Below are positions 2-61,910 of a stretch of 64,000 bases of DNA, one piece after another. The position numbers and the translations under genes are program-made. Origin of the DNA: a virus; IMG/VR virus record IMGVR_UViG_3300028534_000014, positions 55,272 to 119,271 of that record, one strand, 5' to 3'. The first letter of the stretch is position 1; each line of letters starts with the position of its first letter. Under the pieces are notes generated by a model. The model saw nothing but the letters and a program-made list of their open reading frames with translations. It had not been told where the DNA came from and did not search any database.

Positions 2-1231
2 AATAGCAGATATCCTGTAGGTCTCAAATCTACATCAGGTTATACCCCTAAGAAAGATCAAGCCAAATATATCAAGCACTTAGTAGAAAGACCTGATAAC
101 AATAATAAATATCTTTTAGACTTATTCACTGGTGGAGGGAAAACGTACATTTCAACAGAGGCTCTGTCACAAATAGGTGAAAGATATTTCTTATTAACTA
201 AAGCGAAATATATTAATAAGTGGAAAGATGATGTCAAATTCTATCATGGGGTAAAGCCAGAAGAGGTCTATCAATTTAGAGGGTTAGAGTCATTTTACGC
301 ATTCTTTCAAATACCAGAAGAGATAAGAGATAACATAAAAATCTTTATGTGTTCAACAACCACTATGGCTAATCTTATTAAAGCGTATATAACAGGGAAA
401 GAAAAGATAATAAACCCTTATACATTATTTAAGGATATCAAGGTTAATATTATGTTAGTAGATGAGATACATCAACATTTTGAAAGTATCTACAAAGCTA
501 ACATAGTACTTAACCCTAGATTACTTATAGGGTTATCTGCTACATTAGTTACTAAAGATAATGCACTTAAAAAGATATATTATCAGATGTTCCCTGAAGC
601 TAGAAGGTTGTCATTCACATACTATACACCATATATAGATTATTATCTATATAGATACACTATCCGTAAGAACCAACGCTTCAAGATAAAGAGAGGCAAT
701 TATGGTTATAGCCATAACTTATTGGAGAATAGTATTATGAAAAATTATAATACTGAGATAAGATATAAAGAGTTTATTTATAAACTCATAGATAGACACT
801 ATATACAACGGCGAAAGCCTGGGCAAAAAGCTATAGTATTTGTAGCTAGTATAGAGTTTGCTACTAAGTTAACTGAATATTTGCAGAAACAATTAAAGGA
901 TATGAAAGTATCTAGATATGTAGAGAATGACTCTTATGAGAATTTACATGGCGATGATCTTGATATAATCGTATCATCACACGGCTCGGCTGGAACTGCT
1001 GAGGATATTAAAGGTCTAATAACTGTCATAAATACAGTTAACGTAGACTCATACCCAACCAATGTACAAGTATTCGGTAGACTTAGGGATGTGGATGGGG
1101 TACAGATGCAATTTGTGCAGATTATGGATAAAACTATAAAACAACATTCGGCATACCTTAAATCACAGCTCACAGTACTCAGAGGCAAGCCTAAGAGTAT
1201 TATAATGAATGAGTACTATAACCTAATTTAG
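2..1231 (+). CDS. SF2 (DEAD/H-like) helicase, phiKZ gp075-like; 5'-truncated by the window
   Basis: Frame +2 is open from base 2, upstream of the ORF-track start. Walker A LFTGGGKT (~121-145), motif II LVDEIH, motif III LSAT, motif VI QVFGRLR. Confidence 0.88.
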   Translation, partial: NSRYPVGLKSTSGYTPKKDQAKYIKHLVERPDNNNKYLLDLFTGGGKTYISTEALSQIGERYFLLTKAKYINKWKDDVKFYHGVKPEEVYQFRGLESFYAFFQIPEEIRDNIKIFMCSTTTMANLIKAYITGKEKIINPYTLFKDIKVNIMLVDEIHQHFESIYKANIVLNPRLLIGLSATLVTKDNALKKIYYQMFPEARRLSFTYYTPYIDYYLYRYTIRKNQRFKIKRGNYGYSHNLLENSIMKNYNTEIRYKEFIYKLIDRHYIQRRKPGQKAIVFVASIEFATKLTEYLQKQLKDMKVSRYVENDSYENLHGDDLDIIVSSHGSAGTAEDIKGLITVINTVNVDSYPTNVQVFGRLRDVDGVQMQFVQIMDKTIKQHSAYLKSQLTVLRGKPKSIIMNEYYNLI

Positions 1232-1249
1232 TACTCTTTATTTTTTTTT
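1211..1249 (+). terminator. Hairpin plus T-tract at the helicase stop
   Basis: GAGTACTA-N10-TAGTACTC followed by TTTATTTTTTTTT. Confidence 0.7.
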
Positions 1250-1262
1250 ATAAAGGATAAAT

Positions 1263-2171
1263 ATGGCACTACATATCAGCTTCCCGCCACCAGGGTTAGC
1301 GAATAATGAGAAATTAATCGGGACAAGAGTAAAGATTTATGAAGATAGAGAGAAGAGTAGACTAAAGTACACTACTGATGAAACAACTAGTCCATTATCT
1401 TTAGTAAGAGACCCTGGTCTAACTATCAATCAAACCTACTATGTTGAAGGAGCGTATATATTAGAGCCAGGGGGACTACAGGCATTCAGTCCGTTAGTGG
1501 AGTTTACTGTGACTGATAATAATGATATCACTTTAGACGCACTAACTCCAATGGATAAACCTAGACCGTATATTACTATGAGAGAGATTGATGAGGAGAG
1601 TCAGCATACGCTATTACACTTTGATATAGGGTTTACTGGGAAGGTATATCCTATAAAGACTATATCTTGGGTGCTAAAAGATAGCAATGGTGATATAGTG
1701 GATTATATATTAAATAGTGGTAGAGCTATTCATTTTGAAACAAATGCTTTATTACTACCATCTAAAGTCTATACAATAACGGCATTGGTTACATTAACTA
1801 ATAATGTATCTAGTTTTCCCATTAGTAAAACTTTTTATACTGCTAAATATTACCACGATGGTTTTAGTTTTGATAAAAATAGATTTGATGCAGGGGACTT
1901 TAGAAATACTAAGGTATATTTCAATCTAGAGAATAATCATAATGTGATTAGACTAGAGGTTCTTGACGAGGGCGGGATTGTTAATAGTCATACATTCTCA
2001 GGAGATTATATAGATGTAGCACAATATATTGATGTTACCGCTAATGCTGTGATGAGGTTCATCAGTATAGATAATGATGGTGTGGAAAGAGGACCATTAT
2101 ATTTCTATCATTTTATTGATAGTAGCAGTATGTTACCATCAGGTTTACCATACAATACAAGAGAGGAATAA
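1263..2171 (+). CDS. Putative virion structural protein with Ig/Fn3-like beta domains
   Basis: AAAGGA RBS. Beta-rich sequence that resembles the N-terminus of 61900..63639. C-terminal LPSGLPY motif. Lies upstream of the tail fibre cluster. Confidence 0.5.
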   Translation: MALHISFPPPGLANNEKLIGTRVKIYEDREKSRLKYTTDETTSPLSLVRDPGLTINQTYYVEGAYILEPGGLQAFSPLVEFTVTDNNDITLDALTPMDKPRPYITMREIDEESQHTLLHFDIGFTGKVYPIKTISWVLKDSNGDIVDYILNSGRAIHFETNALLLPSKVYTITALVTLTNNVSSFPISKTFYTAKYYHDGFSFDKNRFDAGDFRNTKVYFNLENNHNVIRLEVLDEGGIVNSHTFSGDYIDVAQYIDVTANAVMRFISIDNDGVERGPLYFYHFIDSSSMLPSGLPYNTREE

Positions 2172-2173
2172 GA

Positions 2174-12486: not shown

Positions 12487-12662
12487 TGATTACGAAAATC
12501 GCTCAATTCGTTTTCATAGTATTGGCTATTGTTATTATTATCAGCCAATACTTTATGGAAGGTATAATTAAGAAAGATGTTCCTATGGAACTTTTATTCT
12601 TAATTATCGGTATAGCGGCAGGGATTAAAGATATACCAGGCATGTTTAAGGGGAAGAAATGA
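12486..12662 (+). CDS. Small 2-TM membrane protein (58 aa, basic C-terminus; holin/antiholin-like), not in the ORF track
   Basis: Hand translation MITKIAQFVFIVLAIVIIISQYFMEGIIKKDVPMELLFLIIGIAAGIKDIPGMFKGKK. ATGA overlap with the next gene. Confidence 0.65.
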   Translation: MITKIAQFVFIVLAIVIIISQYFMEGIIKKDVPMELLFLIIGIAAGIKDIPGMFKGKK

Positions 12663-12913
12663 ATTATGTTATCTTAAATATAGTATGTGTAATCTTTTTA
12701 ACTTTAGTATTTACATACTTCAGCTTTAAGATGAAACTATCTAAATATGTTACAATGGGCATGTTTGTATTCTCTATAAATGTACTTATCTCTCATTATT
12801 TATATCATATGCACGATATACACATTGAAGGAGTCTTTGGTCTATTGAATACTTTAGCGCTACTTTCTGTATTACTTGGATTTAATACTGTATATAGGAG
12901 TAGAAAATGCTAA
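12659..12913 (+). CDS. Small 3-TM membrane protein
   Basis: Three hydrophobic segments, basic tail RSRKC, translational coupling on both sides. Confidence 0.65.
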   Translation: MNYVILNIVCVIFLTLVFTYFSFKMKLSKYVTMGMFVFSINVLISHYLYHMHDIHIEGVFGLLNTLALLSVLLGFNTVYRSRKC

Positions 12914-13182
12914 GTATATTAATGAGCATCATATCGATTGTTATGATAATGATTGGATTAGTGGTTATATGGCATAGCTTAGACATGTGCTGTAATCTGT
13001 TTATAAGATTAGGTTTAAAACTAATGGCTGTAGATTTAATCCTGCAAGCTATTACTATTATGGTAGGAACATATGATCTAACACTATACTCGCATATTGA
13101 TGAGTTAAGGTTACGCGGGATAACACTATTAGTTTTTACAATAGGCATTATTATTAGTTATAGACAGAACAAGAGTAGATAG
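12907..13182 (+). CDS. Small 3-TM membrane protein
   Basis: Three hydrophobic segments, basic tail RQNKSR, followed by a hairpin. Confidence 0.65.
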   Translation: MLSILMSIISIVMIMIGLVVIWHSLDMCCNLFIRLGLKLMAVDLILQAITIMVGTYDLTLYSHIDELRLRGITLLVFTIGIIISYRQNKSR

Positions 13183-13199
13183 CTTTTATAAGCTATCTA
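13176..13199 (+). terminator. 10-bp hairpin over a stop codon
   Basis: TAGATAGCTT-TTAT-AAGCTATCTA. Confidence 0.6.
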
Positions 13200-13246
13200 T
13201 TATATACTATTTCACGGTTCTATGAGAATAGATGAAAGGAAAAAAT

Positions 13247-13732
13247 ATGCATTTAGCATTCTACAAAGCTTTTAATCCGAAGGCTACTCTATTAGATAGT
13301 CTCATAGGCTCTTTCTCAAAAGGCTGTTATAGCCATGTTGAGATAGTGATTGATTATAATAAAGACGGGCGTAGCTTTTGTATAGGCTCTTCTGCCCGAG
13401 ATGGCGGCGTTCGTAAAAAGCATATCTTTTTAAAAGATGAGCAATGGGAAGTTATACAATTAAATTTCCTTACTAACGAACAGATAATGAAGATACATAC
13501 GGCATTAAATAAATACTTGGGCTATAAATATGATATCTTAGGAGCATTGACTAGTATATTTGGCATAAAGGTAGATATACAGAATAGAGTCTTTTGCTCA
13601 GAGTTAGTGGCATTAACAGTATTAGGTGTAATGGGTGAACCATTTCTAATAAGTGATATTCCTCCATCATATCTAAGGAATAAGATATTGGAATTAAATA
13701 AGAAACATACAACAACAATAAAGGATATATAA
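13247..13732 (+). CDS. Permuted papain-like NlpC/P60 amidase (YaeF/YiiX-type)
   Basis: Catalytic His in GCYSHVEIV precedes Cys in FCSELVA; also YDILG. Start placed after the AAAGGA RBS (13232 is an alternative). Confidence 0.8.
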   Translation: MHLAFYKAFNPKATLLDSLIGSFSKGCYSHVEIVIDYNKDGRSFCIGSSARDGGVRKKHIFLKDEQWEVIQLNFLTNEQIMKIHTALNKYLGYKYDILGALTSIFGIKVDIQNRVFCSELVALTVLGVMGEPFLISDIPPSYLRNKILELNKKHTTTIKDI

Positions 13733-14269
13733 ATGAACATGTTTAACGATTTGATGAACCAAGGTAAGGACCAATTAGCTTCTGCTCTATTAAATGGTCT
13801 ATTAAAAAAGGGTACGGAATTTGTACAAAGTAAATTAAAAGAGTCAACAGGCATCGATATAGATTTCAATAACCCTACACCAGAGCAGACACAAGCTGTA
13901 GTAAATAATGAGAAGCAAATCTTAGCTGATTTAGAGATGGTTAAAGAGTCTAATAGACATGATGAGGCTGAAGCTACTATGAGGTTAAAAGAGTTCGAGC
14001 AAGAGAGCAAAAATACTAATGATGCCAGAAACGCTATAACAGCATCACTAGCATCAACTAGCCCTCACGCTAGAGCATTTGGGTACTTAGCAGTAGTTAT
14101 GATACCTGTAATGTTTATATTCTTCTCTGCACTATTAACAGCTATGGTTCTGGGTAAAGTAGAAGCTAACCCTACAACTATTAGCACTGTAGAATTCTTA
14201 AAATATGCTATTACGCTAATCGTAGGTTTCTTTGTAGGTTCTAGTACAGGTAGCAAATTAAAGACTTGA
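13733..14269 (+). CDS. Putative holin (GTA_holin_3TM-like)
   Basis: Helical N-terminus, D-ARN motif, two TM helices, C-terminal IVGFFVGSSTGSKLK typical of this family. Directly upstream of the endolysin. Confidence 0.7.
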   Translation: MNMFNDLMNQGKDQLASALLNGLLKKGTEFVQSKLKESTGIDIDFNNPTPEQTQAVVNNEKQILADLEMVKESNRHDEAEATMRLKEFEQESKNTNDARNAITASLASTSPHARAFGYLAVVMIPVMFIFFSALLTAMVLGKVEANPTTISTVEFLKYAITLIVGFFVGSSTGSKLKT

Positions 14270-14279
14270 AAGGTATAAT

Positions 14280-15170
14280 ATGAAATTAACTAATATAGCC
14301 AATCTTAAAGGAACGCTGTATTATGATCGAATGGTTATGCTACAAACTATATTAGATAATCAGTTAGTGGATTATCTACAAAAAGCATTAAGCTATTTTG
14401 GTTATAATTATGTTAAAGTAACACATATATTAGACACACCTACTATTATAGCATTTATAACACATCCTAATAGTTTAGAGATTATCCAGGCAGTCAAAGC
14501 CCTGAAAGAGGCTGATGATAGTAGAAACAGGATAGTCAGGGATAAGTTAGTAGGTAAGCAGACTATTATGTCTTTCTTACATGCTAATGAGGGCGATGAT
14601 ATAGCCTGGCTTCCAGGTGAAAAGGGTGTGACAGGACCAATGGGTGTTTATAGCTACTTACACCCTAAGTCTGAGCCTATACAGTTATTAAAAAGGTTAT
14701 ATAAAAAATATGGATATAATTTTTATAATAGAACACATGCTAGATTAATGAATAGAGCTATCTCTAAGAGTGAAAGAGAAGCTTTGATAGAGAGTGCTTG
14801 GTTATACTATAAAAAGACATATTTAGTAGATACATTAGATTTCCTTAAATATTATCCTAAGAGCTATTTAACACTTTTTAGCAATAATCTTAATGCAGGT
14901 AAGAGTAGAGGGATAAAAGTGCTTCAGGAGGCTGTTGGGGCCTATAGTGATGGCATTCCTGGTAAAAAGACTGTGAAGACTGTGCTTAATTATGTTAAAG
15001 TACATAAAGATAATGGACTTAATCAAGCTCAGTTATCATTTATGGCTAAATTCTATATATACTTATGCACTAAATCTAAAAGAGCTAAACACTTCTTTAA
15101 GTTTAGAAAAGGATGGTGCAATAGATTGAAATATTTAGGATTTAAAACAATTAAAAATACTTGTGTCTAG
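14280..15170 (+). CDS. Endolysin: GH108 muramidase + PG_binding_3, with a degenerate N-terminal PG-binding-like segment
   Basis: NEGDDIAWLPGEKGVTGPMGV resembles GH108 EGG...DPGG.T.YGI. NNLNAGKSRGIKVLQEAVGAYSDGIPGKKT. C-terminal FRKGWCNRL. Confidence 0.8.
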   Translation: MKLTNIANLKGTLYYDRMVMLQTILDNQLVDYLQKALSYFGYNYVKVTHILDTPTIIAFITHPNSLEIIQAVKALKEADDSRNRIVRDKLVGKQTIMSFLHANEGDDIAWLPGEKGVTGPMGVYSYLHPKSEPIQLLKRLYKKYGYNFYNRTHARLMNRAISKSEREALIESAWLYYKKTYLVDTLDFLKYYPKSYLTLFSNNLNAGKSRGIKVLQEAVGAYSDGIPGKKTVKTVLNYVKVHKDNGLNQAQLSFMAKFYIYLCTKSKRAKHFFKFRKGWCNRLKYLGFKTIKNTCV

Positions 15171-15183
15171 CATATGCTAGACA
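15164..15183 (+). terminator. Perfect 20-bp palindrome, CATATG core
   Basis: TGTCTAGCATATGCTAGACA over the endolysin TAG. T7 tract 7 nt downstream. Confidence 0.65.
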
Positions 15184-15202
15184 TGAGTTATTTTTTTATT
15201 GT

Positions 15203-15219
15203 ATATCATTGTTAAATAG
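15203..15219 (+). promoter_or_regulatory. Putative phage promoter motif (degenerate copy)
   Basis: T-tract then ATATCATTGTTAAATAG, ~20 nt before the dut RBS. Confidence 0.4.
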
Positions 15220-15241
15220 AATATAATAATAAGGAGAAATA

Positions 15242-16240
15242 ATGTTTAAAACATTAACTAAAGAAGATATTGTTGATTATATAGTGGACGGTATAAAGGA
15301 CAGAAGTGCTAATGATTTATATAGTTATATAGAAATACTAAATATAGAACATGATGGGTATGCTAAGATTAAGATACCGTTTACTTATCTTCTAGCACGA
15401 GATACAGTGGATGATTTAGATGCACTGTATAGAGAAATGTCTTTATATACAATAGAAGAACTAACGATGCGTGTTAATGAAATAATATCAGATTATAGTC
15501 GTATTAAACTAGTAGAGAAGATAAGTGATTTTATTAATAGTGAAAGTATCAAAAATAACCCAATCCTAGAAGTCTCTGAACTATGTGAAATGTTTATATT
15601 ACAAAATAAACTAAACAAAAAAACAATAGGCGATAATTGGAGCATTATAGACTATATTGATAATAAACGTATCGATTGGTTTACATATATCATAACAGAG
15701 TTAGCTGAGGCTATAGAGAGTTTGAATTATAAACATTGGAAACAGCAGAAGAATGATATAGATAACTTCTTAATAGAAGCTGTAGATGTTATGCATTTTA
15801 TCATAAGTAAGATTATTAAAGATAATAGTACTAAACCAAGAAATAGCGATATGTTATGCAGATTAGCAACAACTGTTTTTCAAGATGCTAGAATGGATAG
15901 AATAATGCCTAATGATATGGAAATAGACATTGATGGGGTTATAGATGCAATAAAAGATATAATGAAAAAACCTAATTCTAATCAGTCTATCTTATTAAAT
16001 TACATTAAGATGTTAGAGAAAGCACATATCTCATTATTTACTATATATCAAATATATCTAGGTAAGAATATACTGAATGAATTCAGACAAAATAATGGAT
16101 ATAAAGATGGGACCTATATTAAGATATGGGATGGTATTGAGGATAATATCTATATGCTAAATAAGATAAAAGATGGTATAGATATTGATGACTTATATGA
16201 GATATTAGAGAATAAATATACTAAAATACGAAGTAGATAG
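15242..16240 (+). CDS. dut: Dimeric all-alpha dUTPase (Campylobacter/trypanosome type) with ~110-aa N-terminal extension
   Basis: Motifs LQNKLN, ELAEAIESLNYKHWK, EAVDVMHF, KNILNEFRQNNGYKDGTYIKIWDGIEDN. Confidence 0.9.
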   Translation: MFKTLTKEDIVDYIVDGIKDRSANDLYSYIEILNIEHDGYAKIKIPFTYLLARDTVDDLDALYREMSLYTIEELTMRVNEIISDYSRIKLVEKISDFINSESIKNNPILEVSELCEMFILQNKLNKKTIGDNWSIIDYIDNKRIDWFTYIITELAEAIESLNYKHWKQQKNDIDNFLIEAVDVMHFIISKIIKDNSTKPRNSDMLCRLATTVFQDARMDRIMPNDMEIDIDGVIDAIKDIMKKPNSNQSILLNYIKMLEKAHISLFTIYQIYLGKNILNEFRQNNGYKDGTYIKIWDGIEDNIYMLNKIKDGIDIDDLYEILENKYTKIRSR

Positions 16241-16263
16241 TAGGTCATATGACCTGCTATCTA
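16234..16263 (+). terminator. 30-bp palindrome, CATATG core, one U-G pair
   Basis: TAGATAGTAGGTCATATGACCTGCTATCTA over the dUTPase TAG. Confidence 0.65.
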
Positions 16264-16312
16264 TACATTATTTATGACTCAAATAGTTCATTAGACGAAA
16301 AAGGAGAAAGTT

Positions 16313-18445: not shown

Positions 18446-18489
18446 TGCTATAGTTTTATGATTACAAATCAATACATAAAAGAGGTGAG

Positions 18490-19288: not shown

Positions 19289-19310
19289 CCATATGGCTAT
19301 CTAGTAGTAT
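19275..19310. terminator. Perfect 36-bp palindrome between convergent genes, CATATG core
   Basis: ATACTACTAGATAGCCATATGGCTATCTAGTAGTAT. The two TAG stops (19286-88 and 19297-99) are symmetric about the centre. Confidence 0.7.
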
Positions 19311-19743: not shown

Positions 19744-19755
19744 AAAACTCCTTTT

Positions 19756-41973: not shown

Positions 41974-43560
41974 ATGAACCAGGCTAAAACACTAGTTGCG
42001 AAGCTTATATTTCCTGATAAATTTTACGTAAAATACCTAGGAGAGATACTTACATCTAGAGTAATAAATAGAAGAGAGATTGATGAATTAGGATTATATT
42101 CTACAAAGATATTCGGACCATTGGGTTCGGAAGAGAGGAATAGTACATTTGCTTATATAGACTTAAAGAGCGATATACTGCATCCAACTATATATGAGTA
42201 TCTACTAAAGATTAATAGTCTTTATGGGCGCATAATGAATAGCTCTATTTATGTTAAATACAATAAGCAGAATAGAACTTTTGAGATAAGTGATATAGAG
42301 AACGGTTATACAGGTTATAGCTATTTCTTAGAACATCTACCTGAATTAGATTTAGGTAGTAGCGATAGTGACGATAAACAAAATATGATTGATGTTATAA
42401 ATAAGTATAGAGAAAAGGGCAAACTAACTAATAATAAATTATTAGTACTACCAGCAGGACTTCGAGATATTGAAATTAAACTTGATGGTCAGACAGTTGA
42501 GCATGAAATCAATGACTATTACAAAAAAGTATTCAACAATGTACAATTACTTAACTTTAATAATAGTGTGATGAGTACTAAAGATAGACTGCTCTTAACA
42601 TTACAGAATAGAGTTAATGATTTAATGGCCGAGTTATTTAAAGTAATCAATGGTAAAAAGAAACTCATTGGAGGCCAATACGTTTCTAGACATGTAGATT
42701 ACATAACTAGAAATGTAGCAACTGGTAGAAGTGTTAAAGTGGATGATGTTACTAAAATAGACTTTAATCCTATTAATATAACACTGATAGGATTATATCA
42801 ATATAGTAAAGCCATTACCCCTATAACCAAATATTATCTTAATGACATCTTTCTAAACAAAGTATTGGATAGAAGTAAGAAGACTATTCGTTGTTTTGAT
42901 CCAGATAATAACACTTTTAAAAATGTAGAAATAGATGATAAAACATTTAGAATGCTATCTACTAAAGACGGTCTAGATAAACTATTATCTAGAATGAAAG
43001 ATGATGAGTTTAAAAATAAAGAGCTAGTATTCGATGGGTGTATAGCCTTTCCTGTTGTAGAGACTAACGGAGAGACTAGGATATACGTGAATACTCTACC
43101 GGATGGAAAGGTAAGAGCATTAACATATGGTGAATTAGTATATAATGCCATATATAAATATAGTTTAACTAACCATGGCTATATAACAAGATACCCTATC
43201 ACAGAGCAGGGTTCTATATTTATTACTAAAGTAAGAGTAAATACAACTAGTAGAGAAAAAGAGACTAAAGTAGAGATAATCTCAGAGTATGGTCAAGATA
43301 ATTTCACTACAACAGAGTATCCTATACCAGGACTACCTTATGATAGTAGTTTAAGCCCGTCATACGCTAGAGCTAAGGGACTAGGATTAGATTATGATGG
43401 AGATAAAATTGTATTCACAGCATTCATTACGGAAGATGCTAATGAAGAAGCCGATAAATTTTTAAAGTCTGTTAATAATTATGTTAAACCAGATGGCAAA
43501 TTAACACTCGACTTAATAGACCATCCATTAGAGATATTATTAAAAAGCATGACAAAATAG
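41974..43560 (+). CDS. Virion RNA polymerase beta' subunit, catalytic part (phiKZ gp180-like)
   Basis: GLYSTKIFG, LVLPAGLRD, RYP, and the catalytic GLDYDGD motif. Start inferred at ATG 41974 (track uses GTG 41938). Confidence 0.88.
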   Translation: MNQAKTLVAKLIFPDKFYVKYLGEILTSRVINRREIDELGLYSTKIFGPLGSEERNSTFAYIDLKSDILHPTIYEYLLKINSLYGRIMNSSIYVKYNKQNRTFEISDIENGYTGYSYFLEHLPELDLGSSDSDDKQNMIDVINKYREKGKLTNNKLLVLPAGLRDIEIKLDGQTVEHEINDYYKKVFNNVQLLNFNNSVMSTKDRLLLTLQNRVNDLMAELFKVINGKKKLIGGQYVSRHVDYITRNVATGRSVKVDDVTKIDFNPINITLIGLYQYSKAITPITKYYLNDIFLNKVLDRSKKTIRCFDPDNNTFKNVEIDDKTFRMLSTKDGLDKLLSRMKDDEFKNKELVFDGCIAFPVVETNGETRIYVNTLPDGKVRALTYGELVYNAIYKYSLTNHGYITRYPITEQGSIFITKVRVNTTSREKETKVEIISEYGQDNFTTTEYPIPGLPYDSSLSPSYARAKGLGLDYDGDKIVFTAFITEDANEEADKFLKSVNNYVKPDGKLTLDLIDHPLEILLKSMTK

Positions 43561-46500: not shown

Positions 46501-47613
46501 GATGATGGTAAAAGGTTACTATATACAGGTGTGCAAACTAAACACCCTGTTAATGTGGCTGGACAGGAGCTTATACCATATCGAACTGATATGGCCGATA
46601 TCATACCATATAGAGTAAATAGTAAACACGCATTACACGCTGATATAGATGGAGTCGTTACCAAGGTTACTCGAAACAAAATAGTAATTAAATATAAAAC
46701 AGGCAAGAGTCAAACCTATAGTTTAAAAAGCTGGTATAGTAAAGATACAGGAGGAGTGACATATAAGCATACGCTTAAAACTTTACTTAAAGAGGGCGAT
46801 AGAGTGCAACCTGGGGATAATATCTATTATGATAGTGGATATTTTGGACCTAACTTTTTTAACAAGAAAAAAGTAACATATAAGTTTGGAGTGTTAGCTA
46901 CTACTGTTCTATATGACTCTGACAGAGGTTATAATGACTCTACAACTATATCAAAAGAGTTCGCTGATAAACTTAAGACTAATATAGTATACCTAGCAAA
47001 TAAATTAGTACATCCTGGAGTTATAGTTGTTGAATATGCTAATGTAGGAGATACTGTTGAGTATGATAGTCCAGTAGTAACGTTTATAACTGATGAGGCT
47101 ATTGAAAATGTAGATAACATTAACCCAGAGACTGTGAGAATGTTAAGAGATATAAATAAGTCAGTTATATCAGCTCCGATTAAAGGAAAGGTAACTAATT
47201 TCGAAATCATATATAATTTCGAGCTAGATGATTGTAAAGATGCGAGATTAAAAGAGATGATAGCAGAGTCCGATAAGAGACTTAAAGAGTCTACTGGCAT
47301 GACTGGCAGAGTTGATAACACCTATAGTTATAAAGGTAAAGGAATTGAAGAAGGCGAATATCTCATTAAGTACTATATAGAAAAAGAACTTGGTATGTAT
47401 AATGGAGATAAGCTTATTGCCGCAAATCAGTTGAAAGCAACAGTAGGCGGTATCCATGAACCTAAATATACTAGTGGTGGGAGAGTTATAGATTTATACA
47501 TAGATAGCGATAGTGTCGCTGCACGTATAGTCGAGTCGGCTAAACTGATGGGTCTTATGAACTATGCTCTAGTTCATATGAGTGAAAAAGCGGTAATGCT
47601 CTACGATAAGTAG
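43573..47613 (+). CDS. Virion RNA polymerase beta subunit (phiKZ gp178-like)
   Basis: 1346 aa. G.FGRNK..., ISEATKDSSSVG, D.KRLLYTGVQTKH, GYNDS..IS..FA.K, GDKL...NQLK. Confidence 0.88.
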   Translation: MLRYFELEKRIGVRKKADFLTPRILDISDFSFSRSSTIHWRQGVPSPNDNILTNIDNVFEYIIPKYSRTGLGKYKRVSISLTALISARKKEVPEYKYLTDISKCEAVSSSKYCIVDYSELKSLYIYNSDKRNYRARLYNEYITIIDTINQSNMDGKIHYIHIDLPDTLLTYQEIKKVVKNENTSNYEKLVTNEKQYILIEIYKALMADYKESSIFNNVKNIDTSNIVFVFTHANKVTIARLYNILALSKETGLIHSRIKAVNEMQAIAILSKYLYKIIATANPMSITEIERRKDIVAVDRFNNDEEVDIKEIDKLIENQKEIATINISTENKPIKTDIKTTEDPVETAKLLVDDKVAKGIISEKKAKIIEEEVQRVVKEYKKYIPKPKELIFRPKPIPDMKTVFDKQLLVDTIKEYDEHYIRDIIDKERLAVIYSMSKFGYIVTSAEKKINDNLSNNEEIWNITVKQPTGTSVKLSIRIPIVTPGGIIRNNGKEYLMNKLQKDYIIKKINFNTVSMLSYYSKLFFVKANYSRYNMSTAIHKTLVNMSADLDNEIGMAVYGENSLPNIKVPYWYSIVMRETRSVMKGNWYLLFDYSNRSSLLNKEDDLKSVERHGILMGNYKKEYIVVDKDDQLYKVNSKGDILEELGDLLEFINIDKTKLPVEFVSSKMVGESFPVVIMFMYYLGIKPLLNHLDMRYRLLKNKRDLTSSEFSIKFSDGYYAFDKFNKSGALILGGLKSVEKYLSNIPFNSLNGESGVLDLMHAIGYPSKLSIAMKLFRAGFIGPLEVPSLEIKELPTDTVALLFKAIKMLETDAFTDPNSIETIDITGYERLNGMLYNVLTSAIRVNESKIGRVRTKLTLDPFIIYKNLASDAGFNLVDDLNPIQSVLQAYEVKLTGTFGRNKDTITFKNRSYYPDQVGYISEATKDSSSVGESYSLSATPKLMNTKGINKDIPIDELTPANIYSISALLGTDTLKDDGKRLLYTGVQTKHPVNVAGQELIPYRTDMADIIPYRVNSKHALHADIDGVVTKVTRNKIVIKYKTGKSQTYSLKSWYSKDTGGVTYKHTLKTLLKEGDRVQPGDNIYYDSGYFGPNFFNKKKVTYKFGVLATTVLYDSDRGYNDSTTISKEFADKLKTNIVYLANKLVHPGVIVVEYANVGDTVEYDSPVVTFITDEAIENVDNINPETVRMLRDINKSVISAPIKGKVTNFEIIYNFELDDCKDARLKEMIAESDKRLKESTGMTGRVDNTYSYKGKGIEEGEYLIKYYIEKELGMYNGDKLIAANQLKATVGGIHEPKYTSGGRVIDLYIDSDSVAARIVESAKLMGLMNYALVHMSEKAVMLYDK

Positions 47614-47831: not shown

Positions 47832-49109
47832 ATGTTTAGATACCCAAGAGAATTAGAGTTAATTAACAAACCGATTAGTGTCATGCCTAACAGTATTGTT
47901 GCTGCTATTGTAGGTGATAATGATAATCTAAGAGATATAGAAATAGAAAAGATAGCCGATATCGTAACGAATGAAGTGTTATTCTATAGAAATAATATAA
48001 ATCCTTTGTTTAATACATTAGGCACCAAGATCACGGAACTTAAAGATAATATTATGAACATTAACAGTACTATCAATCTACAACAGGTAGTAGTTCCTAC
48101 ATTTATCCAAATGATGGATGAAGAGAATTATTATAATGAAAATAGAGGAGATTATACAGGTGACGTGGTATTCATTCCAAAGGATGCTAATATTAAAGAA
48201 TTAGCTAAGAGTCTAAATGATTTTAATCCTGTAATATCTGATGTTAAAAAGTACATAGCAGGCGTTACTAATGCAGATGTTCAAGAAGCGATTGAATTAC
48301 TTAATAGTTCAGTTCGATTAGATGACTCATTTAGTAACTATAGCAGAAAGTTATCAAACCTAGGAACAATTACTAATGCGTTAGCCGTTGCATATATACT
48401 TAGATATAGTGACCCTGTTGACGGTACATTAGGAACTATTGATGATTATGAGAGATATCTAGATAGCATCTCTAATAGATTTATAGCTATTACTACCGGT
48501 ATATATAGAATGGTAAAAAGATACATGGAAGAGACTAATCCTATAGTGGTTATTGGTTATGAAGAAGATGCTGATACAGTATTTGTTACATCGGCTATCA
48601 CAAATGTATATAGAGCCGGAGTTAATGTGGATGCTGTTTTAGGCGCTGGCGTATCAGGGCAGAAACGTGTATATTCTTTAAGTGATATTGTAGATAATAA
48701 AGATACTTATACAAAAGTCTATCAAGATCATATGACTACTATCATTACTAAGGGTCGTATAAAACAATTGAGTATATTTAGAGAGAAGTTAACTTCTTTA
48801 TTACTATCATATGTAGAGAATAGTGAGTATCCAGAGCTAGGTCTATCTTTAAGAGATAGTAAACTATTCCTTATAAATCTATTAGATAATGATGAGAAGA
48901 TTATGTATACATATGATATACTAAGAGAATTCATCTTAGGATGCCTATACGCTAAGACTAATGCTAAGAGACTATATGACAATATAGAATACTTTAAAAG
49001 CATTAGTTCTGCAATGAATAATTATCAGACAGATGATAAGATTTATATTACATTAGCTGTTAGTAAATTGGTTGAAGAGTTTTTACTTAAACAAATTAGC
49101 GTAGGGTGA
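47832..49109 (+). CDS. Head/ejection protein (phiKZ gp177 / SPN3US gp243-like)
   Basis: Syntenic between vRNAP beta and the beta'-C subunit. ATG 47832 follows an AGGA RBS. Confidence 0.55.
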   Translation: MFRYPRELELINKPISVMPNSIVAAIVGDNDNLRDIEIEKIADIVTNEVLFYRNNINPLFNTLGTKITELKDNIMNINSTINLQQVVVPTFIQMMDEENYYNENRGDYTGDVVFIPKDANIKELAKSLNDFNPVISDVKKYIAGVTNADVQEAIELLNSSVRLDDSFSNYSRKLSNLGTITNALAVAYILRYSDPVDGTLGTIDDYERYLDSISNRFIAITTGIYRMVKRYMEETNPIVVIGYEEDADTVFVTSAITNVYRAGVNVDAVLGAGVSGQKRVYSLSDIVDNKDTYTKVYQDHMTTIITKGRIKQLSIFREKLTSLLLSYVENSEYPELGLSLRDSKLFLINLLDNDEKIMYTYDILREFILGCLYAKTNAKRLYDNIEYFKSISSAMNNYQTDDKIYITLAVSKLVEEFLLKQISVG

Positions 49110-49123
49110 TCCCTATGCTAATT
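49094..49123 (+). terminator. 13-bp hairpin with a G-U pair and the stop in the loop
   Basis: AATTAGCGTAGGG-TGAT-CCCTATGCTAATT. Confidence 0.62.
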
Positions 49124-49166
49124 TTACTAAGCGCGGTTATCTGAAAAAAGATATGAAGGACATATA

Positions 49167-49877
49167 ATGGATTATAAGAAGTTAAAAGAGAACCCTAGAA
49201 AAATACAAAGTATACTTAAAACAGATGGCGAGAATATAATAACTACCGAAACATTGTATTTAATCTTTCCTGAGCGTTTTATTACTAAAGATATAGCAAT
49301 GATAGGGCGTACAGTAGAAACGCCTTGTATATACCTTTTACACGACGCTAATGGTAACTATATTAAACAACTAATACCTACAAGAGTATCATTTATACCT
49401 AATGCTGTTGAAGATATTGAAATAGAAGGTAAGAAGTATAAAAAACTAACATTTATTAAAGGTGCTGTTTTTAATAATGGTAAGATGGTTATTGATAAAG
49501 ATATCCCATTTATATTACAAGATGACTGGATAAATAAGAGTGGGAATATACCATTCTTTATAAATATGGATGATATACAAAAAGTATTTATTAATGGCGT
49601 TGTTTATGGAGGTTCGGTGGTAGGTAGTAACCCTGTTCCTATAGCTACATTTATATCCATAATCGCTAGAGATAGTAAAAATAGATATGTTAGACAATAC
49701 TATACAAAGGAACAAATTAAGCATATGAAGATTAAATTTGTAGGATTAAGTAAAGTTAGCGCAGTATATAATAATGTATTCAGTGCTATTACAGGAGCAT
49801 ATTTAAAACAAGGAATAGCGGCTTCGTTAAATATGGATAACCCGGGTCAGACAAAAATAGATGCAGTATTAAATTAG
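49167..49877 (+). CDS. Virion RNAP beta' C-terminal subunit (phiKZ gp176 / SPN3US gp244-like)
   Basis: 236 aa. C-terminal KFVGLSKVSAVYNNVFSAITGAYLKQGIAASL aligns by eye with beta' region H (LLGITKASL.TESFISAASFQET..VL..A). Synteny agrees. Confidence 0.62.
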   Translation: MDYKKLKENPRKIQSILKTDGENIITTETLYLIFPERFITKDIAMIGRTVETPCIYLLHDANGNYIKQLIPTRVSFIPNAVEDIEIEGKKYKKLTFIKGAVFNNGKMVIDKDIPFILQDDWINKSGNIPFFINMDDIQKVFINGVVYGGSVVGSNPVPIATFISIIARDSKNRYVRQYYTKEQIKHMKIKFVGLSKVSAVYNNVFSAITGAYLKQGIAASLNMDNPGQTKIDAVLN

Positions 49878-49901
49878 TGCTAGGTATATGCCTAGCACTA
49901 A
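49874..49901. terminator. Palindrome between convergent genes, TATATG core
   Basis: TTAGTGCTAGG-TATATG-CCTAGCACTAA. TAG stops at 49875-77 and 49898-900 are symmetric. Confidence 0.68.
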
Positions 49902-50947: not shown

Positions 50948-51019
50948 TTTTATCCTTTATATTTTCTGTCATAAGAAACATAATGACTATTTAATTCTTA
51001 ATAAATATATTTTATATAC

Positions 51020-51045
51020 ATATTATTTAGATAGTCATAAAGACT
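51020..51045 (+). promoter_or_regulatory. Putative phage promoter motif
   Basis: ATATTATTTAGATAGTC-ATAAAGACT upstream of DHH. Confidence 0.6.
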
Positions 51046-51066
51046 AATATAAAAACAGGAGCGAAT

Positions 51067-51906
51067 ATGGGGATTGTTAATATTACACATAAAGACTGTA
51101 ATGATGGATTTACAGCAAAATGGGTAGTTTGGAAAAGATATGGTAATGAAGTAGAATTCATTGATGGTGTATACGGTAAAGAGCCTGATTATGAATTGCT
51201 TAAAGATAATAAAGTGATTATAACTGACTTTAGTTATAAGAGAGATATTATGTTAAAGATTATTAACATCGCTAAAGAAGTAATCATTTATGACCATCAT
51301 ATTAGTGCTAAAAAAGAGCTAGCCGGATTAGAAGAGATGGATAACACGACCATTGTATTTGATATGGACAGATGCGGTAGTGTAATTACTTGGAATGAAT
51401 TATTTCCAAATAAAGAGACCCCTTTATTAATGAAATATGTACAAGATAGAGATTTATGGATTAAAGAATTACCATATACAGATGCTATTAGTATGTTTAT
51501 ATTCTCGTTAGAGAAAAACTTCGCTAACTGGGATATGTTAATGAGTATTAATGATTTTAAAGATGAAAAGGGTAAATACCTAATAACTGAAGCTAAAGCT
51601 ATGTATAAAAAATATAAAATAGATTTAAAAAATCTTATGAAGCTTGCTAGGCCTATAGAACATAACGGTATGTCAGGCATGATAGTGAATGTACCTGGTA
51701 TATACGGTTCTGATATATGCCATGAGTTATGTAAAGAGCATAAGGTAGAGTTTGCTATCTATTGGTTTCAAAATGCTGATGGTGACTTTATTCACGGTAT
51801 CCGTAGTTTAGAATTCGGTCCAGATGTATCATCTATAGCCGAGGGATTCGGCGGAGGCGGTCATAAGCATGCTGCTGGATTTAAGTTAAATAGACAGCTA
51901 TCATAG
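51067..51906 (+). CDS. DHH/DHHA1 phosphoesterase (NrnB/oligoribonuclease-like)
   Basis: HKDCNDG, TDFS, DHH, QDRDLW, SIRS-like GIRS, GGGGHKHAAGF. Confidence 0.9.
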   Translation: MGIVNITHKDCNDGFTAKWVVWKRYGNEVEFIDGVYGKEPDYELLKDNKVIITDFSYKRDIMLKIINIAKEVIIYDHHISAKKELAGLEEMDNTTIVFDMDRCGSVITWNELFPNKETPLLMKYVQDRDLWIKELPYTDAISMFIFSLEKNFANWDMLMSINDFKDEKGKYLITEAKAMYKKYKIDLKNLMKLARPIEHNGMSGMIVNVPGIYGSDICHELCKEHKVEFAIYWFQNADGDFIHGIRSLEFGPDVSSIAEGFGGGGHKHAAGFKLNRQLS

Positions 51907-51942: not shown

Positions 51943-51980
51943 CTAGCGAGTTAATTGAAAAATAGTAACTCGCTAGGAGG
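51943..51980 (+). promoter_or_regulatory. Hairpin overlapping the Shine-Dalgarno of the 51985 gene
   Basis: CTAGCGAGTTA-N12-TAACTCGCTAG. The 3' arm ends inside AGGAGG. Confidence 0.55.
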
Positions 51981-52404: not shown

Positions 52405-53166
52405 ATGGCATTAATGACTCTTAACAATGAGTTGATAGATTTAAAAGATAAACTAGAGGTATTTAGTAAACCGGATGAGAACGGTTACTACCCTGTAGTA
52501 TTAGGCGCGTTTAATGTATACGCTAGTAACGGGGCTTTCTATAAGATAACAGAAAACTTAGTTAGATTATTTGGACCTGAGGCTTATATTAACATGAAAG
52601 CTAAGAATGGACAATTAAAAGCTGAAGCTGAGCATCCGAAGTTTGTTAAAGGCATGACTAAAGAGGAGTGGCTACAGCGATTAGCTATGACTGATGAGAA
52701 GTATACTTGTGGATTGTTCGGAGAAGTTAAACTAGATGATGTTCCTAGACGATTAACAACGCAAAAAGGTGAAGCTTATCTAACTTTAGGTAAAATCAAA
52801 CCTATTGGAAAGTATGGAGACGCTTTAAAGAGTGACCTTGAGACTCCTGATAGTAATACTAGTTTTAGTATTAGGGCATTAAGTAATCGTAATGTAATTG
52901 CAGGTATAGATGTTAGAGAGATATTTGCTATTTATGGATGGGATTGGACTAATAGAGGCGCTATTAGTGGAGCCGGTACAAGGACGTTAGTAGAATTACA
53001 ATCATATGGTCTACAGGTAACTACGGAAGAGTTAAGTGCTATGATAACTCATCTAGAGCAAACTTCAAATCCTGAAGAGCTATTAAGTTGCCAATATGAT
53101 TTAGAAGTAACTAAGCATGCTATTAAGAGATGTAGCGGTGGTGTATGTATAACTAAAGACTGGTGA
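52405..53166 (+). CDS. Prohead maturation protease (phiKZ gp175-like)
   Basis: GYY.VVLGAFN...NG..Y, EAEHP (His), SFSIRA (Ser), WDW (Asp) catalytic triad pattern. Confidence 0.85.
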   Translation: MALMTLNNELIDLKDKLEVFSKPDENGYYPVVLGAFNVYASNGAFYKITENLVRLFGPEAYINMKAKNGQLKAEAEHPKFVKGMTKEEWLQRLAMTDEKYTCGLFGEVKLDDVPRRLTTQKGEAYLTLGKIKPIGKYGDALKSDLETPDSNTSFSIRALSNRNVIAGIDVREIFAIYGWDWTNRGAISGAGTRTLVELQSYGLQVTTEELSAMITHLEQTSNPEELLSCQYDLEVTKHAIKRCSGGVCITKDW

Positions 53167-53186
53167 TAGCTTATGCTATCATCAGT
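53159..53186 (+). terminator. 12-bp hairpin with a G-U pair at the protease stop
   Basis: ACTGGTGATAGC-TTAT-GCTATCATCAGT. Confidence 0.6.
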
Positions 53187-53212
53187 TTTATGATTAAAGT
53201 AAAAGGACTGAT

Positions 53213-55291: not shown

Positions 55292-55317
55292 ACTATAGTA
55301 CCATATGGTACTATAGT
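55292..55317. terminator. Perfect 26-bp palindrome between convergent genes, CATATG core
   Basis: ACTATAGTACCATATGGTACTATAGT. Confidence 0.68.
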
Positions 55318-58695: not shown

Positions 58696-58742
58696 TACTA
58701 GATACCATATGGTATCTAGTAAATATAATTTCTTTTTTTTTA
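58696..58742. terminator. Perfect 26-bp palindrome, CATATG core, plus T-tract
   Basis: TACTAGATACCATATGGTATCTAGTA, then TTTCTTTTTTTTT at ~58729-58741. Confidence 0.68.
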
Positions 58743-58746
58743 GTAA

Positions 58747-59697
58747 TTACTTACTTTCCACTCTGCCTTTATATATCTCATCTGGATTAACTTCATTTCC
58801 ATTCTTTTGAATAGGCACATCGCCCCTATTCCAGCCCATTCCATCTAATTGTTGTGCACTTTGTACTTCATTTAGATTAGCAGGTAATATAGCCTCATCA
58901 GGTGTAGATAAGAATATACTCATTTGATCAATAATAGTTTGTAGATATGCAGCAGTAGCAGCATTCTCTATAACCATGCACTCATGCTCAATAGAGTATC
59001 TTTTAAGCTCTTTAGCGCCTTTATTAAGTTTACCAGTTTGTTCACCATCCTTAAGAGGGAAGAAATTTACTGCAATAAAACCTTTCAATACATTAACACC
59101 AGGTTCATCTAGTTCTGCAAATCCCATAGCACCTGTATGCATTGTAGCTGGATAAATGTGTCCTTTTAACTTCGCTCTAATATCAGGAATAGTTCCTATT
59201 AAAGCATATTTAGTATCAGGGTCCATCATACCATATCTAATGATAAAGTTTAGGATATCGTGAATAGTTAACCCCTTAAGCTCTTGCCACTCTATAGTAA
59301 TAGTTGACTGCGCTCTCTCTACATTAGTTACTTCTGCTTGTTGCAGGTACTCTGGTCCCACTTTATGTTTATCTGTAGATACTGTTAAAGTTGTATCTAG
59401 ACCAGAGATACTATATACTTGGTTAGTATATAACTCTACCCAAATTTGTCTAAGTTTTTTAGCTATATTAGTAGGGAATAAATCAAATAGTGCTGGAGTT
59501 CTTAAAACTATAGGCACTACATCCCCTTGTGTATATGCCGCATTAGACGCCCAAGCATCAAATACCTCATCACCCTCAACAGCCGCTAACAAAGGCATAT
59601 AGCCCTGTTGCGCACCTACTCTAAGGTCTAATTTACCTCTATCAGCTCTTCCAAGTGGATTTAGTCTATCTTCTTGTTTCTGTGTTATAAATGCCAT
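58747..59697 (-). CDS. Tail tube protein (phiKZ gp030-like)
   Basis: W.SNAAY....V.PIVL..P, I.GLD.TL, V.RAQS.....W.EL.G..I, RYGM.DPDTK. Follows the sheath gene. Confidence 0.8.
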   Translation of the reverse strand: MAFITQKQEDRLNPLGRADRGKLDLRVGAQQGYMPLLAAVEGDEVFDAWASNAAYTQGDVVPIVLRTPALFDLFPTNIAKKLRQIWVELYTNQVYSISGLDTTLTVSTDKHKVGPEYLQQAEVTNVERAQSTITIEWQELKGLTIHDILNFIIRYGMMDPDTKYALIGTIPDIRAKLKGHIYPATMHTGAMGFAELDEPGVNVLKGFIAVNFFPLKDGEQTGKLNKGAKELKRYSIEHECMVIENAATAAYLQTIIDQMSIFLSTPDEAILPANLNEVQSAQQLDGMGWNRGDVPIQKNGNEVNPDEIYKGRVESK

Positions 59698-59706
59698 CTA
59701 TATTCC

Positions 59707-61818
59707 TTATCCATTAAATTCTTCTGAACGGAATAGAACTGTTCTACTCTCATTCACTGTTTTAGCAACATTAGCATATAGATCAATTTCACTATCCCAT
59801 TTAAAACCTAAGAGTTTATCTCTCTCTGTGATAATTACTTTTGGAATAGTTTTATATGCTGAACCATATTTACCGTCAAGGATATCAGACATGAACTTAG
59901 TTACAGTAATGATGAAATCGATATCATTTAGGTCAGTCGCTCCTGTAAATGCTCTCCATGCTTTATGATGCACTCTAGCAGTGCTACCTAGTACTAATGC
60001 AGTAGTAATTGAGTTCAATACACTAGTATCATCAGGATATACTGTTTGTTGTTGTGGATAGAAATACTCTAATTTATTCTCATTACGAACCCATACTAAT
60101 CCGCTATCATAAAGTACATCTAATACTTCATCAGAAAGTTTCGCAGGGTCGATATCAATTAGAGCCTCAACTTTATTTGCATCTTGACGACTGAATGCAT
60201 AAGTATCATTAATCTTACCATCTAATGCCCCTGCCCATTTTTGCATCTTGATTGCATAATCTAGAGTCAATGGTAATCTGTATCTCCACTCTTTAGTCTT
60301 ATCGATACCTGTTTGCATAAATACAGCAGCTCTAGCAGTTGGTGTATTATAGATAGGGGACTCTATATATAATCTAAGTGCTGTTTGTAATGCAGCTCCT
60401 TTAGAGATATATTCATCTACATCTAACTTTTTATTATCTTTATTAAAAGATGCTACAGATAGTGCTACAAAAGTATCTTTTCTTAGACCAATATATTTCG
60501 CTAGTGCTAATTTAGTATCCCATTTAAAACCACTGTCATATAGAGTAGTATCAGGATTAACAGCTACGTCTAATCTATCTGAGCCTCTATCCATGTAAAG
60601 ATCCATAGCATCTTTTACATTTCTTTCAAACTCATCTAGGTTGTCTATATCCCCGTCTTCGCCGTTCACTAGTCTTATAGGAGTCTTATCATTACCTGTG
60701 CCTATGGTAACGCCTTGCCCTTTTAGATCTTCAGTATCAGCGAATGATAAATTTAAAGGTCTAATATATTCATACTCTATACCGCCAAGTGTTTTGTTGG
60801 TGATGAAGTTTACGAGATATTTATACTCTTCACTTGCTTCATCTGTAGTTGTTCCAGCAGGTTGACTATAATCAGCCCATGATGGTACATTACCACCAAA
60901 TCCTTCTACCTCTGCTAAAGCCATCTCTTTTAAAATTGCAGCAACACTCACTTCATCGTGTACTACAGTTTCATCGAATGTATAACTTTGGTATGGTTTT
61001 CTAAAGTCAACTGTATTTCCATATTCCGCTGGGAAAACGTCTCTAATATCTTTAGTATATGGCTTCAATGCAAATTCAACATTCTTAGTACCAGCAATTG
61101 TACTAAATACATCGTCATTATAGTATACTTTAAGATTAAAGCCTAAAGCTTGTTGTTTTAACAACTCTTTATCGATATCATCACCGATTTTAGGAGTGAT
61201 AGCAATTCCATAGTTATTGTAATCAGACCCATGTGCTTCAGCATAAACGCTAAACATTGGCACTGCCTTACCAATAGTATTACCGCCAACCACTACATCG
61301 AATGCTGTAACAGCATTTACATCATCATTATACTTAGTAATGATAGCCGTTTCTACTATATTAATATCATCAGCATCTTCTTGATATAACGGTGCTCCCG
61401 TGATATCTCTTTTTACTTTAAATGTAACTGCATCTCTCTGATACGGTTTTGCTGTTTTACTAACAGACTTAAAAAGGTAGAATGTATTTCCTGCTCTTTT
61501 AGGAGCTCTCTCTTCAGGTGTACCAGCATTAACTCTTGGTACCATTCTGTTAACTATACAAGTACCACCGCCATTAGCTAATAATAACTTAATAAATGCT
61601 GTAGCATGATTAGCATATGGTGATTTAAGGTTTAATGCGTCTTGTCCGAATAGCTCCAATAATTCGCCACCAGTTACGTGTGTAGGCTCTAACGGTCCTT
61701 TAGGCGTATTAAGGAAAACTAATGGGGCATGTATTACATCACCCTTTGGTTCAGGGTAAATTCGTCTGATAGACTTATCCTGACCACCATTATGAGTTTG
61801 TCTAGGTGTCGCTCTCAT
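59707..61818 (-). CDS. Contractile tail sheath protein (phiKZ gp029-like)
   Basis: G.QDKS, HAP......PKGP, ..FG.D.L...SPY.NHAT, YDSGF...TK, LRLY.ES..Y.TPT.RA, YFP..QTVY.DDTSVLNS. Confidence 0.88.
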   Translation of the reverse strand: MRATPRQTHNGGQDKSIRRIYPEPKGDVIHAPLVFLNTPKGPLEPTHVTGGELLELFGQDALNLKSPYANHATAFIKLLLANGGGTCIVNRMVPRVNAGTPEERAPKRAGNTFYLFKSVSKTAKPYQRDAVTFKVKRDITGAPLYQEDADDINIVETAIITKYNDDVNAVTAFDVVVGGNTIGKAVPMFSVYAEAHGSDYNNYGIAITPKIGDDIDKELLKQQALGFNLKVYYNDDVFSTIAGTKNVEFALKPYTKDIRDVFPAEYGNTVDFRKPYQSYTFDETVVHDEVSVAAILKEMALAEVEGFGGNVPSWADYSQPAGTTTDEASEEYKYLVNFITNKTLGGIEYEYIRPLNLSFADTEDLKGQGVTIGTGNDKTPIRLVNGEDGDIDNLDEFERNVKDAMDLYMDRGSDRLDVAVNPDTTLYDSGFKWDTKLALAKYIGLRKDTFVALSVASFNKDNKKLDVDEYISKGAALQTALRLYIESPIYNTPTARAAVFMQTGIDKTKEWRYRLPLTLDYAIKMQKWAGALDGKINDTYAFSRQDANKVEALIDIDPAKLSDEVLDVLYDSGLVWVRNENKLEYFYPQQQTVYPDDTSVLNSITTALVLGSTARVHHKAWRAFTGATDLNDIDFIITVTKFMSDILDGKYGSAYKTIPKVIITERDKLLGFKWDSEIDLYANVAKTVNESRTVLFRSEEFNG

Positions 61819-61876
61819 TTTTGTCCTTTATATTTTGATTTAAAAATGAATATATTATTCATACAAACGAATATTA

Positions 61877-61910
61877 TATTTAGCTAGAGGTATATACCCC
61901 TAACTAAATA
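61877..61910 (-). terminator. Palindrome with two G-U pairs on the minus strand, over the minus-strand TAG
   Basis: Minus strand reads TATTTAGTTAGGGGTATATACCTCTAGCTAAATA. Confidence 0.62.

Follow-up and report, generated by a model that had tools for sequence, protein, structure and literature searches.

Palindromic hairpins overlapping stop codons mark gene 3' ends in a divergent phiKZ-like jumbo phage

A family of long palindromic hairpins lies on or beside stop codons in a 64,000-nucleotide (nt) window of viral DNA, bases 55272-119271 of the 157,169-base-pair (bp) IMG/VR viral contig IMGVR_UViG_3300028534_000014. The contig, of which a version of 171,733 bp has also been recorded, is 58% complete by the estimate of CheckV and has a GC content of 32.6%. 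Judged from its genes, it comes from a divergent, phiKZ-like jumbo phage that is uncultivated and encodes a multisubunit RNA polymerase (RNAP) of its own. Positions are those of the window and hairpin statistics those of the whole contig unless stated otherwise. The hairpins stand at gene ends, pair in a strand-specific manner, mostly lack adjacent U-runs and occur across the clade of related phages. They very probably act as RNA hairpins that define mRNA 3' ends. With moderate confidence we read them as intrinsic terminators of the phage RNAPs that work in both directions, are poor in U-tracts and would afterwards serve as 3'-end protectors. That RNA ends at the hairpins, and does so by termination rather than by trimming, is what we infer from these observations.

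The hairpins are real and highly non-random. The original prediction, made from the letters of the window, had listed stems at gene or operon ends at 18 positions. All 18 fold to a hairpin at the place listed, and 15 of them reach a free energy (dG) of -12 kcal/mol or lower as bare hairpins; the other three (1211, 28662 and 61877) were weaker or were missed by a plus-strand scan. The loop-less perfect palindromes of 20-36 bp that had been described are present at seven sites, 15164, 19275, 24193, 27470, 28662, 55292 and 58696. A perfect-stem scan of the contig found 67 stems of at least 9 bp. The palindrome scan against controls that had been suggested was run with Markov-simulated genomes, in a second scan that permitted G·U pairs and one mismatch. 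At dG <= -14 kcal/mol the contig contained 49 hairpins, compared with about 3.6 in order-1 and order-3 Markov genomes, and at dG <= -16 it contained 34, compared with 0.8. The excess of strong hairpins over simulated genomes was thus about 14- to 40-fold.

The distribution of hairpins among gene junctions was scored with a cut-off of dG <= -12 on 146 genes from a crude gene call, which account for 93% of the contig. A hairpin was present at all 19 convergent junctions and at none of the 19 divergent junctions (Fisher p = 6e-11). It was present at 26/94 junctions between two plus-strand genes and at 1/13 between two minus-strand genes. An independent, simpler gene call gave 17/17 for convergent and 0/19 for divergent junctions. 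The median gap at plus-strand junctions was 89.5 nt with a hairpin and 2 nt without one; the 2-nt gap makes hairpin-free co-directional junctions look operon-internal. Hairpins started between -17 and +8 nt from the end of the upstream gene and 24-82 nt ahead of the next start, and at co-directional junctions they were located at the stop of the upstream gene, not at the start of the next one. The stop codon began within the hairpin at 35 of 60 oriented ends and ended no more than 12 nt before the stem at 21 more. Within the window the stop was in or near the hairpin at 17 of 21 oriented ends, and at 2845, 29419 and 49094 it was located in the loop. This placement marks transcript 3' ends and does not fit promoters or operators.

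The stems share an architecture but are variable in sequence and are not copies of one repeat. They comprise 10-18 bp with dG values of -12 to -30, and the median stem GC at convergent junctions is 0.38. The two pairs adjoining the loop are G/C-rich and the loop contains A and U only, CATATG being the commonest centre (13/60 oriented ends). Only short words such as TAGATA and CTATAG are shared by the arms, and the inner stems differ with pairing kept. TAG is the most enriched trinucleotide of the outer (5') arms, with 59 occurrences observed and 12.7 expected; at least one TAG is found in 40 of 43 arms, and TGA and TAA are depleted. The same preference appears in the stop codons, TAG being used by 36 of 63 hairpin-ended genes (57%) and by 21 of 83 others (25%; p = 1.4e-4), and hairpin-ended genes avoid TGA stops.

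A strand-symmetric rescan, with Watson-Crick pairs only and any two mismatches permitted, was used to separate selection on RNA from selection on DNA. Counted on the strand of the upstream gene, transition-type mismatches in one-way contexts were 24 G·U and 5 A·C (binomial p = 5e-4), compared with a ratio of about 1.15 to 1 expected from base composition; at convergent junctions they were 3 G·U and 2 A·C. The excess of G·U on the sense strand indicates that selection acts on the transcript. One-way hairpins were also more stable on the sense than on the opposite strand (dG -20.5 and -13.7 at 53156, -20.6 and -15.1 at 16233, -20.6 and -12.4 at 61877), whereas convergent hairpins are near-perfect palindromes with equal stability on both strands. 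The DNA is perfectly symmetrical where folding is required of both strands. These results bear directly on the possibility that the palindromes function as DNA, as sites of dimeric proteins, as cruciform or recombination sites or as mobile palindromic repeats. Such a function would agree with the many perfect loop-less palindromes, with the recurrent CATATG centre and with the TAG/CTA-rich words shared by the arms. However, DNA symmetry cannot explain why the asymmetry between G·U and A·C tracks the direction of the upstream gene. Perfect symmetry is moreover found mainly at places where transcription of either strand yields the hairpin, inner stems change between copies without loss of pairing, and divergent junctions carry no hairpin at all. 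We therefore regard a DNA-level function of the gene-end hairpins as very improbable.

A canonical intrinsic terminator consists of a stable GC-rich stem with an adjoining U-tract of about 7-9 nt. The present hairpins mostly have no such tract next to the stem. A run of at least four T starting no more than 2 nt from the stem was found at 3/63 oriented ends, which is the background rate (null 2%). The tails are nevertheless not random in composition: the first 9 nt past the stem are G-poor and contain 80% A+T and 51% T, compared with 68% and 34% in the genome, and the words TATT and ATTT are enriched 3-4-fold. T-runs starting 3-8 nt downstream are enriched as well (15/63 compared with 3%). The tail TTATG occurs at 1/60 ends, with 0.5-0.9 expected, and TTAT at 11/60, with 4.8 expected, a weak enrichment. 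The missing U-tract of the original prediction thus holds for homopolymer runs, which are rare beside the stem, but the tails are AU-rich and G-poor rather than free of U.

Such tails could be taken as degenerate U-tracts, in which case the hairpins would be ordinary intrinsic terminators of the host RNAP. A loose consensus scan, for at least 5 T in 8 nt, accepted 16233, 15159, 24192 and 27469 and found 16 sites compared with 5.6 in shuffled sequences, and site 1211, with its adjoining T-run, is the sole listed site of canonical-looking terminator form. This explanation has to account for adjoining T-runs that are no more frequent than background, for stems much longer and more AT-rich than those of typical bacterial terminators, and for the RNAP beta-like genes of the phage itself. 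Development of phiKZ has been reported to be independent of the host transcription apparatus (PMC10914365), and we consider termination by the host enzyme improbable.

Some T-runs downstream of hairpins are explained by a conserved promoter-like motif, which was found in the window at 27513-27560, 28323-28370, 51018-51050, 56987, 57521 and other positions. The contig contains at least 17 copies, each of them on the plus strand. Its core resembles ACATATTATTTAGATAGTC and is followed by a small palindrome (TAGTC..GACTA) and AATAT. The motif is located 30-60 nt upstream of many plus-strand start codons, and a T-run or an A-run often precedes it. The ACATATTATTTAGATAGTC-like motif probably marks a class of phage-RNAP promoter.

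The assignment of the contig to a phiKZ-like jumbo phage is based on a divergent family-B DNA polymerase of the phiKZ type (PF20286, E = 3e-130), on RNAP beta-like subunit genes at 41938-43560 and 43573-47613, and on a tail sheath and a 2231-amino-acid protein that are also encoded in the window. The DNA polymerase is only about 27% identical to its counterparts in cultured phiKZ-like phages. Megablast gave no match to cultured phages, single-protein searches in IMG/VR for close relatives gave no match, and no Rfam family was found at the gathering score. Several studies of hydrothermal vents and epibionts have yielded metagenomes with near-identical DNA, two of the runs containing 94% and 74% of the sampled words, which shows that the phage recurs in vent communities. 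The runs listed for a 10-kb and for a 1.8-kb stretch included no RNA run.

The nearest relatives of the DNA polymerase, 39-43% identical, are encoded on metagenomic contigs that also contain long stop-adjacent hairpins and on which a chimallin-like gene adjoins the polymerase gene. An alignment of the polymerase was used to collect 80 related IMG/VR loci, and the 78 that were long enough, including the contigs of the two nearest relatives, were analysed. A strong hairpin was present at 115/151 convergent and 10/121 divergent junctions (p = 1e-31), which makes the hairpins a trait of this jumbo-phage branch. The median stem in these loci has 16 pairs and a GC content of 0.44, and a T-run of at least four adjoins it at 18/230 ends. 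Overlap with the stop is seen in a quarter of the hairpins, and the median distance from stop to stem is +4 nt; the present genome, where the median is about -3 nt on both sides, lies at the compact end of the range. Orthology of the genes beside one hairpin with those of the nearest relative L002 was considered and rejected, as BLASTP showed them to be non-orthologous.

We propose that the palindromes would be transcribed into RNA hairpins of 10-18 bp that set the 3' ends of transcription units, most likely as factor-independent terminators for the phage multisubunit RNAPs. The long hairpin would form in the RNA exit channel while the polymerase is held on a weak, AU-rich and G-poor hybrid, and the RNA would be released a few nucleotides past the stem. 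One perfect palindrome would serve both strands of a head-on gene pair. After release, the hairpin would shield the mRNA from 3'-to-5' exonucleases. Overlap with the stop codon may be tolerated because ribosomes probably do not closely trail these polymerases.

Several points weigh against termination of this kind. The U-tract adjoining the stem, which is needed classically, is absent at about 95% of ends. T-runs downstream of convergent hairpins (15/38) are no commoner than on the antisense strand of the C-termini of other genes (43/108), and some of those at co-directional junctions are parts of the promoter-like motif; a displaced T-run as an integral part of the terminator, which we had considered, was weakened by both observations. 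For mycobacterial RNAP at least, proposals of hairpin-only terminators failed to hold up (PMC3993855). The argument that a phage nucleus uncouples transcription from translation is tentative for this phage: chimallin was not found in the 58%-complete fragment with Pfam PF25677 or with the chimallin-like protein of a relative, but the Pfam control gave no match anywhere, so that absence is not implied.

The main rival is that the hairpins act in processing or stability only, the polymerase reading through and the ends being produced by 3'-to-5' exonuclease trimming as far as the hairpin or by an endonuclease cut, as happens with chloroplast 3' inverted repeats, bacterial REP elements and the Mimivirus 'hairpin rule'. 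This would be consistent with the lack of an adjoining U-run at 60/63 ends, with the lack of selection for T-runs behind convergent hairpins and with stems of about 12-18 pairs, longer than a terminator needs. There is also a precedent in Mimiviridae, in which an enzyme of the virus cuts at AT-rich palindromes and the RNA receives a poly(A) tail (Priet et al. 2015; PMC4402537). Cleavage of the Mimivirus type, which the original prediction had brought in, found no support here, as no gene for RNase III or poly(A) polymerase (PF14622, PF00636, PF01743) was matched in the contig, although this is 58% complete and host enzymes could serve. A pure stability element would not need U-rich or AU-rich, G-poor tails. 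No head-on junction is without a hairpin, and it is there that halting the polymerase is important; in phiKZ, which has a homologous system, the hairpins are taken to be terminators. On this evidence we judge processing alone rather unlikely and favour termination by the phage RNAPs.

Most one-way hairpins of the window serve plus-strand genes. The canonical-looking site at 1211-1236 has an 8-bp stem and a 10-nt loop with a TAG stop (1229-1231) in the 3' arm, and is directly followed by a T-run at 1237-1250 (dG -10.5, z -4.3). The hairpin at 2845-2874 has a 12-bp stem and a 6-nt loop that contains a TAA stop, with no T-run after it (dG -18.3), and that at 13176-13199 has a 10-bp stem with a TAG stop in the 5' arm and a tail that begins TTATATAC. 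At 15159-15188 a 20-bp perfect palindrome core (15164-15183) with a CATATG centre is extended by G·U pairs on the plus strand (dG -17.7, compared with -13.2 on the minus strand); its arm contains a TAG stop, and a run of seven T starts 2 nt past the extended stem. The hairpin at 16233-16264, for which the energies are given above, has about 14 pairs including one sense-strand G·U, a 4-nt loop, a CATATG centre and a TAG stop in the arm. The 28-bp perfect palindrome at 27470-27497 also has a CATATG centre and a TAG stop in the arm, and 14 nt further on there is a run of seven T that belongs to the promoter-like motif. A stem of 11 pairs with a 4-nt loop is located at 28288-28313 (dG -13.3 on the plus and -7.8 on the minus strand), and the run of nine T 9 nt downstream of it is likewise in the promoter-like motif. 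The 24-bp perfect palindrome at 28662-28685 (12-bp stem) is almost all A/T and weak (dG -9.3, z -4.5), with a TAA stop at its centre. At 49093-49124 a 14-pair stem with a sense-strand G·U has a TGA stop in its loop and no T-run (dG -18.9 on the plus and -14.4 on the minus strand). At 53156-53189 a 16-pair stem with two sense-strand G·U pairs has a TGA stop in the arm. An additional plus-strand site, absent from the earlier list, was found at 51943-51976, 37 nt past the stop of the gene at 51067-51906 (dG -14.3). The one-way hairpin at 61875-61912 is oriented to the minus strand; its 17-pair stem is complete only on that (sense) strand by means of G·U pairs, and the stop of the minus-strand gene 61900-63639 is inside it.

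The remaining sites are two-way. The longest, a 36-bp perfect palindrome at the convergent junction 19275-19310 (dG -30.1 on the plus and -25.5 on the minus strand; z -8.8 and -7.8), contains in its opposite arms the stops of the plus-strand gene 18980-19288 and the minus-strand gene 19297-19743. Both TAG stops are likewise located in the arms of the 28-bp perfect palindrome at 24193-24220 and of the palindrome at 49874-49901, each at a convergent junction. At 29419-29444 the convergent genes overlap, and both stops are in the loop region of an 11-bp stem with a 4-nt loop. An 11-bp stem with a 6-nt loop at 35168-35195 marks the convergent junction with the gene of the 2231-amino-acid protein. 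Perfect 26-bp palindromes with a CATATG centre are found at the convergent junction 55292-55317 and at 58696-58721, between a plus-strand open reading frame ending at 58690 and the minus-strand gene 58747-59697.

A strong hairpin was also observed at 43604-43639 (dG about -17 on both strands), 44 nt past the stop of the first RNAP beta-like gene and 31 nt into the next gene, which starts at 43573. It may serve the two RNAP subunit genes as a terminator or attenuator located between them. Variation between strains was followed in the contigs of four runs aligned with 12500-32499, and none of the variants listed was inside a hairpin. The length of the T-run varies among related strains just downstream of two hairpins, at 15190 (+TT) and 28691 (+T). 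In other runs, Logan contigs stop or are broken at long palindromes (19306; about 24153-24290), most likely because palindromic words disturb the assembly and not for a biological reason. Outside the window, contig 148325-150537 (window coordinates 93054-95266) is a stretch of about 2.2 kb in which no genes were called. It contains two perfect palindromes of 34-36 bp, pure A/T-centred and with a common core (contig 148958-148993 and 149025-149058). Unlike the gene-end hairpins, this stretch is a candidate replication origin or other DNA-level element.

Termination by the divergent, sigma-less phiKZ-like RNAPs has hardly been studied, and the words 'terminat', 'hairpin' and 'stem-loop' are found nowhere in the text of a 2026 review of jumbo-phage biology (PMC13282480). 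As every head-on junction of the present genome is marked by a hairpin, and most of those in the 78 loci, natural templates are available for in vitro termination assays. In uncultivated phages, overlap with the stop codon would provide a sequence-only proxy for uncoupled transcription and translation, and in genomes without a cultured host the hairpins can be used in annotation to delimit transcription units. More tentatively, and with considerable doubt, the split RNAPs of the phiKZ family may use long-hairpin, U-tract-independent termination throughout a large, AT-rich clade of uncultivated jumbo phages, stop overlap being a signature of spatial or kinetic uncoupling, as in a phage nucleus; the UAG-rich arms and C-AUAU-G loops could then be read by an RNA-binding or export factor.

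Compared with known systems, the hairpins resemble canonical intrinsic terminators in forming a stable RNA hairpin at operon ends, in the use of one palindrome in both directions at convergent genes and in a U-enriched tail. They differ in that a U-tract adjoins the stem at hardly any end and in that the stems are AT-rich, unusually long and overlap stops. Chloroplast 3' inverted repeats and bacterial repetitive extragenic palindromic (REP) elements stabilise the upstream mRNA against exonucleases. The present hairpins are like them in being inverted repeats in 3' untranslated regions, and REP elements are also found between convergent genes. REP elements are, however, conserved in sequence, GC-rich, mobile and located outside coding regions, whereas the present hairpins are variable and located on stop codons, and no single conserved multicopy repeat is found here. 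In Mimiviridae, a 'hairpin rule' was reportedly described by Byrne et al. in 2009. The present phage shares with them a large AT-rich genome, a viral polymerase and AT-rich palindromes that mark gene 3' ends, in this case those of most transcription units. The viruses are unrelated, and the Mimiviridae differ in their virus-encoded cleavage and polyadenylation, no enzyme for which was found in the 58%-complete contig. The position of the hairpins relative to stops has a bearing on coupling. Terminators a few bases past the stop are almost inactive in E. coli, where ribosomes trail the polymerase (PMC4824070), and a short distance from stop to terminator is accepted as an indicator of uncoupled 'runaway' transcription (PMC7858274). 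Stop-overlapping hairpins therefore fit polymerases without trailing ribosomes.

The closest counterpart is phiKZ, a jumbo phage with homologous phage-encoded multisubunit RNAPs. ONT-cappable-seq mapped 133 termination sites in phiKZ, 61 of which have in common a GC-rich stem-loop with TTAT after it, and six two-way termination regions between convergent genes (PMC10914365). For this family of polymerases it is therefore established that 3' ends can depend on hairpins with a minimal U-tail. Our scan of phiKZ 1-50000 found short, GC-rich gene-end hairpins 3-30 nt past the stop, followed by TTTAT or TTATG. Both phages thus have hairpins at gene 3' ends, at or just past stops, two-way sites at convergent genes and a short, non-homopolymeric tail that contains U. 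The phiKZ stems have 8-11 bp and one shared GC-rich motif of the CCYCCCC...GGGRRGG type, whereas those of the present phage have 10-18 bp, about 38% GC and variable, AT-rich and TAG-rich arms; they mostly overlap the stop, are often perfect palindromes and lack the TTATG tail. The non-canonical 3'-end system of the original prediction is borne out as genome-wide, RNA-level punctuation, mostly without an adjoining U-run, in a phage with its own RNAPs. It is not unprecedented, since phiKZ has such terminators and related metagenomic jumbo phages have such hairpins. Hairpin stop signals of the phiKZ type were already known; new is their long, AT-rich, variable, UAG-rich and stop-overlapping version.

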